A stretch of DNA of 20,000 nt from an uncultured virus (IMG/VR IMGVR_UViG_3300028805_000095) (taxonomy: Duplodnaviria > Heunggongvirae > Uroviricota > Caudoviricetes), in the IMG/VR virus record IMGVR_UViG_3300028805_000095; one strand, given 5' to 3'. Positions 2,594 through 12,450 of the stretch are shown piece after piece. Numbering within the stretch: position 1 is the stretch's first letter; each line of letters opens with the position of its first letter. The notes under the pieces were generated by a model. It saw only the letters and a program-made list of their open reading frames with translations, was not told where the DNA came from and did no database searches. The position numbers and the translations under genes are program-made.

Positions 2594-2833
2594 GGCGATG
2601 TCTTAAATATCATGCATATTGTGAACTCAAACTTTTATGAAATGGCTAGGGAAGTATTTAATCCTAGAAATGCCATGTATATATCTAGAAATGACGGTAT
2701 GTTGAATAAAGATGTATTACCGCAAAAAGATACATTGGTAAATCTTAATACTTTGAACGATATGTCCTTACGTAAATATAGTGACTCTGAAAGAGAGCAT
2801 ATCGAAAAGATTAAAGCTAAATTTGTAGGCTAG
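2594..2833 (+). CDS. RNAP beta'-N last exon (GDVLNIMH...FNPRNAMYISRNDG...stop)
   Basis: GGC GAT GTC TTA AAT ATC is in frame with the 2612-2833 ORF. The subunit ends about 80 aa after DFDGD, as in the split beta' of phiKZ/AR9-type phage RNAPs (probably the non-virion enzyme). Confidence 0.88.
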   Translation, partial: GDVLNIMHIVNSNFYEMAREVFNPRNAMYISRNDGMLNKDVLPQKDTLVNLNTLNDMSLRKYSDSEREHIEKIKAKFVG

Positions 2834-2893
2834 TTTAAAAAGAGCAGTAATGGAATAGTTATAGAGAATGTGATTTTCCTATCTGCTCTATTT

Positions 2894-2978
2894 GGTAGTG
2901 TGGCAGAGCGGAATTGCGGAGGCTGAGAAGCCTCGGTATCTGATCAATACCATGATGGTTCGACTCCATCAACTACCA
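2894..2978 (+). tRNA. tRNA-Leu(GAG)-like gene, aberrant (6-nt anticodon loop; possibly pseudo-tRNA)
   Basis: Acceptor GGTAGTG/AACTACC (one G.A mismatch), D arm with GG, anticodon stem GAGGC/GCCTC, long variable arm GGTAT/ATACC, T arm GATGG-TTCGACT-CCATC, discriminator A; no encoded CCA. Confidence 0.7.
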
Positions 2979-2986
2979 CATGGCAT

Positions 2987-3156
2987 TGAAGGTTTGGCTT
3001 GCTTAGGACCTTCATAAAAACCTGTTCCCAACGATGATTTCTAAAGAGCAAGTAGAATCATCTGGCAAGGGCGGAAGATAAAAAACTTGGGAAGGTGTGA
3101 CGAACGGTTGGGGTGTCCTCGACGTTTAGTAGTCCGTGCTTAGAGTTACCCTTGCA
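2987..3156 (+). ncRNA. Unidentified structured RNA (kissing loop plus pseudoknot)
   Basis: GC-richer non-coding stretch with five recognisable helices and a 7-bp loop-loop complementarity; details in findings. Confidence 0.55.
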
Positions 3157-3186
3157 TTTAAATATATATTTGGAGGTATTATATAA

Positions 3187-3396
3187 TTGGATAATAAATA
3201 TTGTAAATGGGTCATAAGACCTGGGACTAGTGGAAGTTTATGGGCTCATACACCATGTAAACATGGATTTAATTATCTAAGTAAAATAAGTAGACCTAGT
3301 GAGGTAGAAGATGCATATAATGGAAGATTATGCCCTATATGTGGTAGAACTATTAAGATAGATATGTCATTAATGGTAGATGATATGGAGGTGTGA
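3187..3396 (+). CDS. Small Cys-containing (zinc-ribbon-like) hypothetical protein
   Basis: SD GGAGGT, TTG start, CPICG motif plus upstream Cys residues. Confidence 0.7.
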   Translation: MDNKYCKWVIRPGTSGSLWAHTPCKHGFNYLSKISRPSEVEDAYNGRLCPICGRTIKIDMSLMVDDMEV

Positions 3397-6264: not shown

Positions 6265-7260
6265 ATGGAAACAAGAAAGATAAAGACATATGCAGATACA
6301 TATGTATATAATGCTTCTACATCAGAAGAAGGAAGTTTCGCAAGAAGTCTTATAGAATTCATTAGAACTTCAGATAGAATAAATGTAAATAGTACAGCAT
6401 TCGAACAAGTTAGAAATCAGGTTAAAGTTAGACAGACTACAGCTGTTTTATATAGAATTCTTATGAATAAGAATGTAGTTCTATGTATGAATGGTAAAGA
6501 AGCACCTGCTTCTTTTAAAGTATTCATGGCTAAAGATGTTTTAACTAACAAGGATAAGAAAGTGTTCATCGATGTAACTGGATTACTTAAGATGAATAAT
6601 GGTATGTACTATTGTAAAGAGATAGATAAACTCTGTGCTTATCTTATTATGGCTTTAGTACAGTTCTTATACTATGATAATAATCAGAGATTAATCGATG
6701 ATAATGTGGTTTGCAAAGCATCTATGGAATGCTTTATTAAACTCTTTACTGGTATTTTAGATAATCTTAGAGTTGCTAATTTTGCAGAGAATAGAATAAA
6801 GATTTCTTATATTGCTGGTGTATATTATGGTTATGCTGTAATGGGTAAACCTTTAGATTCTGCTAGAAAGTATGCTGCTAGTGTAACTGGTATCAATCTT
6901 AAAGATGCTGGTGGATATGACTATTGGTATAAGTTAGAAGACTTTAAAGATATCAATAAGTTTATCACATTCCTCAGTGATGCTTTCCATTTGAATGGTT
7001 TAACTACAGGAGTATTTCTTGTAAGATATATGCAGATGTATGGTAAAGGAACAATATTTGGATTGGAAATTCTTCCTTCATTTATCAGTATTATTACTAA
7101 TGCATATAGCGGTTCATTTATTAATTCTCAGAAGACTATTGAGAAATTCTGTGGCAGAGAGATGATTAATTTATCCACAGAAATTTTAAGATTAGGCGCT
7201 GAGATTTATAGTAATGGATTTACTTATGAATCCAATGCTAAAAGAGAAGACTATGAATAA
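6265..7260 (+). CDS. Hypothetical protein, 331 aa (possibly a conserved jumbo-phage protein)
   Basis: Long ORF with SD AAAGGAG, followed by a strong hairpin. No motif recognised. Confidence 0.8.
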   Translation: METRKIKTYADTYVYNASTSEEGSFARSLIEFIRTSDRINVNSTAFEQVRNQVKVRQTTAVLYRILMNKNVVLCMNGKEAPASFKVFMAKDVLTNKDKKVFIDVTGLLKMNNGMYYCKEIDKLCAYLIMALVQFLYYDNNQRLIDDNVVCKASMECFIKLFTGILDNLRVANFAENRIKISYIAGVYYGYAVMGKPLDSARKYAASVTGINLKDAGGYDYWYKLEDFKDINKFITFLSDAFHLNGLTTGVFLVRYMQMYGKGTIFGLEILPSFISIITNAYSGSFINSQKTIEKFCGREMINLSTEILRLGAEIYSNGFTYESNAKREDYE

Positions 7261-12046: not shown

Positions 12047-12067
12047 TTAGTAAAAGTTCAAAATTTC

Positions 12068-12089
12068 AATTATATATAATATAAGTGTA
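12068..12089 (+). promoter_or_regulatory. Putative phage early promoter
   Basis: AATTATATATAATATAAGTGTA, a near copy of 7436-7457. Confidence 0.45.
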
Positions 12090-12408
12090 TAAAGACAAAG
12101 ATTATCCTTTATACGGCGAATCATAGTTTTTATAGAATCATTTAACGTGGCGCTTCACTGGCGCAGTATATAAATAGAGTGCGGCTCTGTTAATCGACCG
12201 ATACGTGATTAACTATGGATTATAATAATAAATAGATCTTATATTATAATCTGAAGATGAATCATAGTGTACATGTATAGAGTATTCTGCTCAAAACAAA
12301 TGAATGGGCTAGACCCACAAGCCAGAATAACAGAGCTGGGTCACTGGAACCAGCAGCAGTGAGTCTCTATTGGAATAAAGTTAAGGATCTATCTTAACTT
12401 TATTTTTT
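12086..12408 (+). ncRNA. Unidentified structured RNA with its own promoter-like site and terminator
   Basis: ORF-free stretch of about 320 nt with nested long-range helices and a potential pseudoknot; details in findings. Confidence 0.55.
12374..12408 (+). terminator. Rho-independent terminator
   Basis: AATAAAGTTAAG/CTTAACTTTATT stem plus T tract. Confidence 0.7.
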
Positions 12409-12450
12409 GATAATTAATAATTAAAATATTTATATGAAAGGAGATCAATA

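Follow-up and report, generated by a model that had tools for sequence, protein, structure and literature searches.

A candidate folded RNA between an atypical tRNA-like gene and the next operon of a ruminant-gut jumbo phage

Directly behind a tRNA-like gene, a 20,000-nucleotide (nt) stretch of DNA from an uncultured tailed virus (IMG/VR record IMGVR_UViG_3300028805_000095; the whole of this stretch is called the window below) carries about 170 nt, at positions 2987-3156, that raise the question of whether they are a mere spacer or encode an RNA with a function of its own. An original prediction, made from the letters alone, had described them as an RNA of no recognised kind, with a kissing loop between two hairpins and a pseudoknot of two crossing helices, and had proposed a new ribozyme, a riboswitch-like RNA or a scaffold. 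The reading that we favour, at a probability of roughly 45%, is that positions 2979-3156 follow an atypical tRNA-like gene as its 3' trailer, lead into the next operon as its 5' leader and act as a functional folded RNA, and that gene and trailer together form a module of 264 nt (2893-3156) between the genes for an RNA polymerase beta'-like subunit and for a small protein, probably a zinc ribbon. The 170-nt stretch is very probably not a junk spacer. Judged from sequence, a functional RNA is plausible because the stretch is non-coding and enriched in G and C and, among close relatives, has diverged less than the sequence on either side, and in our modelling the kissing loop and the pseudoknot would rank, statistically, at the level of a lead.

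A quiet, GC-rich block behind a tRNA-like gene

Between 3018 and 3186 neither strand holds an open reading frame (ORF) of at least 40 amino acids (aa), and all three + frames contain stop codons of mixed types, so that no reassignment of a single stop codon would open a frame. A hidden coding region was rejected on these grounds; the one minus-strand frame with a single stop has no start codon. The GC content, taken in 100-nt windows, is 42-48% over 2950-3150, compared with 25-33% in the flanking genes and a mean of 31.5% for the window. Other islands at this level are 950-1049, which is the core of a group II intron, and 2337-2419, the core of a group I intron; the remaining ones belong either to coding sequence or to a non-coding stretch at 12139-12395.

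We compared the window with near-identical contigs from three other sequencing runs, designated X4, X5 and X7. The block 2894-3156, which comprises the tRNA-like gene and the RNA, differs at 2 of its 263 positions in X4 and at a single one in X5, while the flanks have 11 listed changes in 335 positions and 18 in 409, respectively (block versus flanks, Fisher p = 0.046 and 0.0013). When the RNA alone is set against the flanks using whole-piece difference totals, the p values are 0.026 for X4 and 0.0016 for X5. Divergence resumes exactly at the edges of the block, at 2892 on the left and, on the right, with a T inserted after 3156 in both X4 and X5; the quiet block thus starts at the 5' end of the tRNA-like gene and stops one base past helix Y, the last of the proposed helices. 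The 60-nt non-coding leader in front of it (2834-2893) changes at the rate of the flanks, at 2848, 2871 and 2892. From an RNA-library run, X3, we recovered a 178-nt contig that equals 2998-3175 with zero differences, and no cover of 2828-2997 or 3176-3199; DNA is possible in such libraries, contig ends and gaps prove nothing, and we draw no conclusion from this run on transcription, RNA ends or abundance.

What the original prediction had called a tRNA, at 2894-2978 on the + strand, is a real tRNA-shaped element (RF00005, 35.6 bits at a cut-off of 29), yet one that ARAGORN cannot name and reports as 'tRNA-???' with a two-base anticodon. It resembles a type-II tRNA of the Leu(GAG) kind: the variable arm is long, the T-arm is normal, the discriminator base is an A, CCA is not encoded, and one position of its anticodon loop is deleted. 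The anticodon arm, GAGGC-UGAGAA-GCCUC, has a loop of six nucleotides (UGAGAA) where a tRNA has seven with a three-base anticodon, and when a further U-A pair is counted it becomes a stem of six base pairs (bp; GAGGCT/AGCCTC) capped by a GNRA-type tetraloop, GAGA. The tRNAs of related phages score 58-67 bits on the same model. No substitution or indel was found in the contigs of X4 and X5, which span the whole gene, nor in that of X7 from 2925 onwards, and since the X4 and X5 contigs, which come from two other studies, show the same anticodon arm, an assembly error does not account for it. The sequence thus describes what is probably a Leu(GAG)-like but non-decoding tRNA-shaped element, and analogy suggests that it may be a processing handle rather than a decoder. 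Leucyl-tRNA synthetase does not read the anticodon, so the element could still be a chargeable Leu-type tRNA.

Our favoured reading implies the following order of events. The module would be part of a polycistronic transcript of the + strand, and host RNase P and RNase Z, or equivalents of them, would excise the tRNA-shaped element; tRNA shapes are substrates of both enzymes. Excision would leave a trailer with a defined 5' end about 8 nt before its first hairpin, A. The trailer would then fold into at least three local hairpins, A, B and C, which two further helices, X and Y, and a contact between the loops of A and B might tie together. No terminator-like site was found from the tRNA-like gene and the RNA up to the ribosome-binding site (RBS) at 3172, and the trailer would run on into GGAGG at 3172 and the TTG start codon at 3187, a read-through that makes a structured 5' leader the most probable role. 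As such a leader the folded RNA would most likely protect or tune the downstream mRNA; a separate stable trailer RNA appears less likely. Sequestration of the RBS by the 3' part of the RNA was not found, the only match being one of 4 bp (CCUC/GAGG).

Helices of the trailer

All helices that had been listed are present, on the + strand and at the coordinates given for them, when the sequence is read base by base, and an exhaustive list of perfect helices recovers the same set. A linker (2979-2986, with T>C at 2981 in X4) leads from the discriminator base to hairpin A and would be expected to contain the 5' end of the trailer after 3' processing of the tRNA. Hairpin A (2987-3014) has seven Watson-Crick pairs between TGAAGGT (2987-2993) and ACCTTCA (3008-3014), is extendable to nine with a U-A and a U.G pair, contains CUUGCUU in its loop and has zero substitutions in X4, X5 and X7. 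In hairpin B (3033-3062), GATGATT (3033-3039) and, beyond a bulged T3040, CTA (3041-3043) pair with TAGAATCATC (3053-3062), giving 7 + 3 bp, and the 9-nt loop AAGAGCAAG is complementary to the loop of hairpin A: CTTGCTT at 2998-3004 matches GAGCAAG at 3046-3052 through six Watson-Crick pairs and one G.U pair, and the computed loop-loop duplex has eight pairs and an energy of -9.3 kcal/mol. Hairpin C (3102-3127) joins GTTGGGG (3107-3113) to CCTCGAC (3117-3123) around UGU, includes two G.U pairs and is lengthened by four outer pairs with G3106 bulged. Helix X consists of UUCCCAA (TTCCCAA, 3025-3031) and UUGGGAA (TTGGGAA, 3087-3093) with a duplex energy of -8.0 kcal/mol, and it is crossed by helix Y, in which GCAAGGG (3065-3071) pairs with CCCUUGC (CCCTTGC, 3149-3155) at -11.0 kcal/mol; the low-divergence block ends at this last strand.

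Four perfect Watson-Crick helices of at least 7 bp lie in 2987-3156, whereas 2000 dinucleotide-preserving shuffles contain 0.65 on average and a fraction of 0.0035 of them reach four; for helices of at least 6 bp the corresponding figures are eight observed and 2.63 in shuffles (fraction 0.0025). The larger unit of 357 nt (2834-3190) is more stable than its shuffles (z -2.06; of 100 shuffles, 3 do as well). The minimum free energy (MFE) structure contains all of hairpins A, B and C, and they are the only ones that the centroid structures keep, both for the RNA alone and for the 357-nt unit. The 5' strand of helix X has alternative partners in 3063-3074 and 3107-3112, and the MFE structure pairs 3022-3030 with 3063-3074 in place of X. 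The contributions to the originally predicted fold are -26.5 kcal/mol for A, B and C together, about -4.6 for X, about -8.2 for Y and -9.3 for the loop-loop contact, set beside a nested MFE of -44.6 kcal/mol and counted with no pseudoknot penalty; as modelled, that fold would be energetically competitive with the best nested fold and not better than it.

Of the kissing loop and the X/Y pseudoknot, the complementary strands are real features of the sequence, but covariation does not back their pairing and the centroids leave both out. Three substitutions fall inside 2987-3156 among the three near-identical relatives, all of them on proposed pairs and all compatible with pairing. C3049>T in X7 turns a G-C of the proposed loop-loop contact into G.U; G3111>A in X4 and X5 turns a G.U of hairpin C into A-U and would break the alternative helix 3027-3032/3107-3112; and C3117>T in X7 turns a G-C of hairpin C into G.U, a change that is tolerated on the + strand only. 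None of the variation in X4, X5 and X7 bears on helix X or Y, and no diverged homologue was found in which covariation could be followed further.

Competing explanations

Several observations weigh against a functional folded RNA. The excess of helices is gone once G.U pairs are allowed (11 versus 13.4 in shuffles), and the nested MFE of -44.6 kcal/mol compares with -46.5 +/- 4.0 kcal/mol in shuffles (z +0.47), 138 of 200 of which are at least as stable. In a scan of the window for 170-nt stretches with three perfect 7-bp helices, each with at least three G or C, 9 of 3967 such stretches qualified and these lay not only at 2986 but also at 7141, 12786 and 18726, so that a reader who scans 20 kb meets such clusters by chance. 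Motifs are duplicated in a way that permits mutually exclusive folds (GAAGGT twice and ACCTTC once, TTGGG twice and CCCAA once, GCAAG and CTTGC twice each), and this duplication could reflect a switch or an antisense arrangement, or some of the 7-bp matches could be by-products of repeats. With only the listed changes counted, the RNA alone is less changed than the flanks to a modest degree in X5 (p = 0.019), while in X4 the difference is not significant (p = 0.24); several changes are common to the two runs, which are therefore not independent. Compensatory double substitutions were not seen in these relatives; three compatible one-sided changes out of three have a chance of about 0.4 by our own estimate and are therefore not covariation. 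To judge from the sequences, low divergence could also reflect a recent transfer of the block instead of selection, and one X5 contig departs from the window just after the polymerase gene, at 2842.

The distribution of the RNA weighs in the same direction. An alignment of the RNA polymerase gene (A1) yielded 294 relatives in IMG/VR, of which 78 loci, at no more than 54% identity, were kept; none of the 78 carries the RNA by blastn, nhmmer or covariance model. ARAGORN, run on 60 of these loci, found tRNAs only in L021, L022, L024 and L025 (Leu-TAG and Met-CAT), several kb away. Around relatives of the downstream 69-aa protein (alignment A2, 49-68% identity), ten loci from JGI metagenomes have no tRNA, RNA or polymerase C-terminus upstream, and the 69-aa gene is preceded there by other small genes. 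The RNA was likewise not found by distant- and near-mode blastn against the INPHARED phage database, by single-protein searches of IMG/VR, or by DNA pattern in JGI metagenomes; IMG/VR patterns for hairpin B, the tRNA, the segment from the loop of B to the 5' strand of Y, and the junction together with hairpin C came back empty, and two patterns gave 0 matches in GTDB genome contigs. In five whole IMG/VR records BLAST matched only the AT-rich stretch 3159-3185 and the model R1 matched nothing. Closer relatives were seen only as proteins from ENA/Logan assemblies: P0122-P0125 are homologues of the polymerase (89-95% identity) and P0206-P0209 are homologues of the 69-aa protein (58-78%). As far as sequence searches go, the tRNA-like gene with its trailer is a lineage-specific module.

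As a separate observation on the loci with tRNAs, in the region 10205-11160 of L021, a distant relative, a tRNA-Leu(TAG) and a tRNA-Met(CAT) lead into some 900 nt in which the ORFs are all short and overlap and no Rfam family matches at gathering thresholds; this stretch may be a large non-coding RNA, and L022 and L025 have the same tRNA pair.

Could the block simply be foreign DNA? According to this explanation, which we hold to be somewhat doubtful, DNA of higher GC content that came from a host or a different phage, with a decaying tRNA gene in it, was inserted recently between two phage genes and is hitch-hiking; it would have no function at the RNA level, its helices would stem from chance and short repeats, and its low divergence from recency or from exchange between strains. 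Absence of the block in all of the more distant relatives that we examined (the 78 IMG/VR loci, with ARAGORN on 60, and the 10 metagenome loci) is what such an insertion would give, as are the X5 contig that diverges right past the polymerase gene, a GC content of about 45% within a genome of 31%, and a tRNA-like gene whose 6-nt anticodon loop is defective and whose score is modest beside those of tRNAs in related phages. The unremarkable MFE and the comparable helix clusters elsewhere in the window agree with it too. On the other hand, a donor was not found either in GTDB genome contigs with the two patterns or in the phage database. The limits of the quiet block coincide with the 5' end of the tRNA and with the last proposed helix, while the 60-nt leader keeps pace with the flanks; such changes as the block does show in the RNA are all compatible with pairing; and perfect Watson-Crick helices are in local excess.

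An RNA that is catalytic or senses a ligand, as originally predicted, would be a compact tertiary fold in which X, Y and the A-B contact cooperate and whose motifs might allow two conformations. We regard this as improbable. In its favour, X and Y, which cross, are among the four perfect 7-bp helices, the loop-loop duplex has eight pairs, the summed helix energies lie in the range of the nested MFE (again without a pseudoknot penalty), the sets of motifs and complements fit alternative pairings, and the window, with its three introns, is well supplied with catalytic RNAs. Against it, no ribozyme or riboswitch family matched even at E<=10, none of the variation in the relatives concerns X or Y, and no metabolic gene that would point to a ligand lies downstream. 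Nothing in our results points to either a ribozyme or a riboswitch.

The claim that the RNA is unrecognised, by comparison, is borne out by a search with 4227 Rfam families, run over the whole window at gathering thresholds and over 2800-3300 at E<=10. Across the window, only models of group II and group I introns matched at gathering thresholds; in 2800-3300 the tRNA was accompanied only by chance-level matches to atoC (16.3 bits) and SNORD103 (16.2 bits), and no covariance model of the hepatitis delta virus (HDV) type was among the matches. Neither ARAGORN nor Rfam at E<=10 reported a further tRNA in 2987-3156. A second or decayed tRNA was considered there and rejected: helix Y (7 bp, spanning 91 nt) could mimic an acceptor stem, but 3132-3148 form no T-arm.

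Theta ribozymes are minimal HDV-like motifs that cleave within +/-5 nt of the 3' end of gut-phage tRNAs, as described by Kienbeck et al. 2024 (PMC10879173). An HDV-like fold was defined for our search as a nested double pseudoknot (P1-P2-P3-P1'-P4-P2') in which P1' comes straight after a 3-bp P3 and J4/2 begins with a catalytic C. A permissive descriptor of it, applied to 2960-3200, returned 367 helix combinations, the earliest P1 of which begins at 2990, 12 nt past the discriminator at 2978, and the analogy to theta ribozymes fails at this defining position. If X is taken as P1 and Y as P2, the 15 nt between the 5' strand of Y and the 3' strand of X (CGGAAGAUAAAAAAC) form no P3, so the X/Y knot is not HDV-like; the best alternative fold, with P1 at 2990, lacks a C in front of the P2' strand. 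A more ambitious version of the favoured reading joins both ideas and is, in our view, a long shot: the non-decoding tRNA-shaped handle and its trailer would be a new phage RNA module in which processing frees an RNA held by X/Y and the A-B kiss, and this RNA would toggle between two folds through GCAAG/CUUGC, GAAGGU/ACCUUC and UUGGG/CCCAA as a switch or ribozyme for the operon downstream of the polymerase gene.

A regulator that acts as an antisense RNA, in trans or in cis, after release by tRNA-type processing has its models in phage immunity RNAs that RNase P processes, c4 of P1 and CI of P4, and in tRNA 3'-spacer sponge RNAs. An exposed motif such as the CUUGC loop would then pair with repeated GCAAG targets, be they in its own transcript or in a different one. 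We consider this a remote possibility. Two copies each of CTTGC and GCAAG in loops and strands of the same RNA, and its location directly 3' of an RNase P/Z-type substrate, are in line with such a regulator; neither C4 nor any other Rfam family matched, however, and within the 20-kb window no extended complementarity was found, the best match being 12 nt long (E 0.17). That the short inverted pentamers and hexamers instead play a role at the level of DNA, where they would bind proteins or make up a signal for recombination or packaging, is hardly tenable: CTTGC/GCAAG, GAAGGT/ACCTTC and TTGGG/CCCAA do recur in both orientations, and perfect Watson-Crick complementarity with no excess of G.U is what inverted repeats in DNA would give, but hairpin C needs G.U pairs in a + strand RNA and C3117>T keeps pairing on that strand only, the motifs are short and irregularly spaced, and the block is contiguous and co-conserved with a gene for a tRNA-shaped RNA.

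Phage setting and comparison with known RNAs

The window is part of a jumbo-phage contig. A 584-aa protein encoded on the minus strand at 12912-14666 matches the PHROG major head protein, and several of its 1517 relatives are on contigs of 200-316 kb. Near-identical sequence occurs in runs X3, X4 and X7, which belong to three studies of sheep-, bovine- and goat-gut metagenomes. All genes around 2979-3156 are on the + strand, as is the proposed RNA. The upstream gene, which ends at 2833, encodes an RNA polymerase subunit like the N-terminal part of beta' (PF00623 in intact homologues), and its exons, located by tblastn with an intact homologue, P0126, are 1 to ~454, ~2210-2258 and ~2594-2833. 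The RNA belongs to jumbo phages of ruminant-gut sequencing runs, which have a multisubunit RNA polymerase of their own and an unusual load of self-splicing introns.

Within 455-2580 the polymerase gene is interrupted by three introns. The first is an ORF-less group II intron, with GTGCG at 455, a match to the D1-D4 model at 502-641 and domains V/VI at 965-1049. It abuts the second, a group I intron with a NUMOD4/HNH endonuclease ORF (1236-2006), with no exon detectable between them, and the two could be a twintron or two introns around a very short exon. This second intron was missed by Rfam and recognised as a paralogue of the third (80-83% identical), an ORF-less group I intron at 2259-2580 that sits at the codons of the catalytic DFDGD motif.

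Between the stop codon of the polymerase gene (2833) and the tRNA-like gene, an irregular leader hairpin (2841-2889, + strand) has a 7-bp Watson-Crick stem of AGAGCAG (2841-2847) and CTGCTCT (2883-2889) and is in the MFE and centroid structures; it evolves at the flank rate, with the X4/X5 changes already listed for the leader. In X5 a 37-nt piece of this hairpin (2855-2891) recurs with six differences inside a 1902-nt contig with unrelated flanks. Within the window neither the leader (2834-2893) nor the RNA has a repeat copy.

Downstream, GGAGG at 3172-3176 and TTG at 3187 on the + strand are the RBS and the start of the 69-aa gene (3187-3396), the start being confirmed by alignment with homologues that begin MDNKYCKW. 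Its product has invariant Cys6, Cys24, Cys49 and Cys52 (CPIC) and is probably a zinc ribbon. A set of 5.8 billion proteins has only five clusters of it, it matched neither a Pfam nor a PHROG family, and the nearest Atlas clusters are unnamed phage proteins. The AT-rich stretch 3159-3185 with GGAGG (TATATATTTGGAGGTATTATATAA) has matches of 14-26 bases at 83-100% identity in several places in the genomes of three distant relatives, and may be a shared promoter- or RBS-type motif or mere low complexity. Far from this locus, a second ORF-less stretch of about 400 nt (12047-12450) has GC islands of up to 50% at 12139-12395 and, at its end, a hairpin with a T-run behind it (~12378-12408); it has no Rfam match at E<=5 and may be another small RNA gene.

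How does the module compare with systems that are already described? Non-decoding tRNA-like modules such as mascRNA of MALAT1, the tRNA-like domain of YrlA and the tRNA-like structures of plant viruses come to mind, since the element here keeps the acceptor, D, T and variable arms and caps its anticodon arm with GAGA, although it matches none of those families. If the module is real, this probably non-decoding tRNA-shaped element would serve as a processing handle for its neighbour. The trailer itself is closest in plan to trailer RNAs of tRNA operons, namely E. coli RtT of tyrT, the sponge 3'ETS-leuZ and, from the tRNA cluster of phage T4, two small stable RNAs. These are non-coding, roughly 100-200 nt long and co-transcribed with a tRNA that lies upstream, and they receive their 5' end from tRNA 3' processing, as in our working model; unlike these, it has no Rfam match and runs without a terminator into the RBS of the next gene. 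GOLLD and ROOL are also phage-borne, near tRNA genes and of unknown function, but they are several hundred nt long, widespread and strongly covarying, whereas the RNA here is about 170 nt long, confined to one narrow lineage and matched by neither family.

On phage tRNA-linked stable RNAs, the literature search brought up nothing specific beyond the theta-ribozyme paper and a csRNA catalogue, and three 14-nt strings had 0 occurrences in the supplements of PMC10690425 (three files not included). With theta ribozymes, as PMC10879173 describes them, the RNA shares its position directly 3' of a CCA-less tRNA-type gene on the same strand, an animal-gut tailed phage as its source and the proposal of crossing helices; it differs in its length of about 170 nt, in an X/Y knot that has no P3, in a P1 that comes too late and in lacking an HDV-type Rfam match. 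We therefore place it as a candidate member of a loose class of phage tRNA-linked non-coding RNAs, in no family described so far. Its practical value would be modest; if real, it would add an unclassified folded RNA to the phage tRNA-adjacent set that includes theta ribozymes, GOLLD and ROOL.

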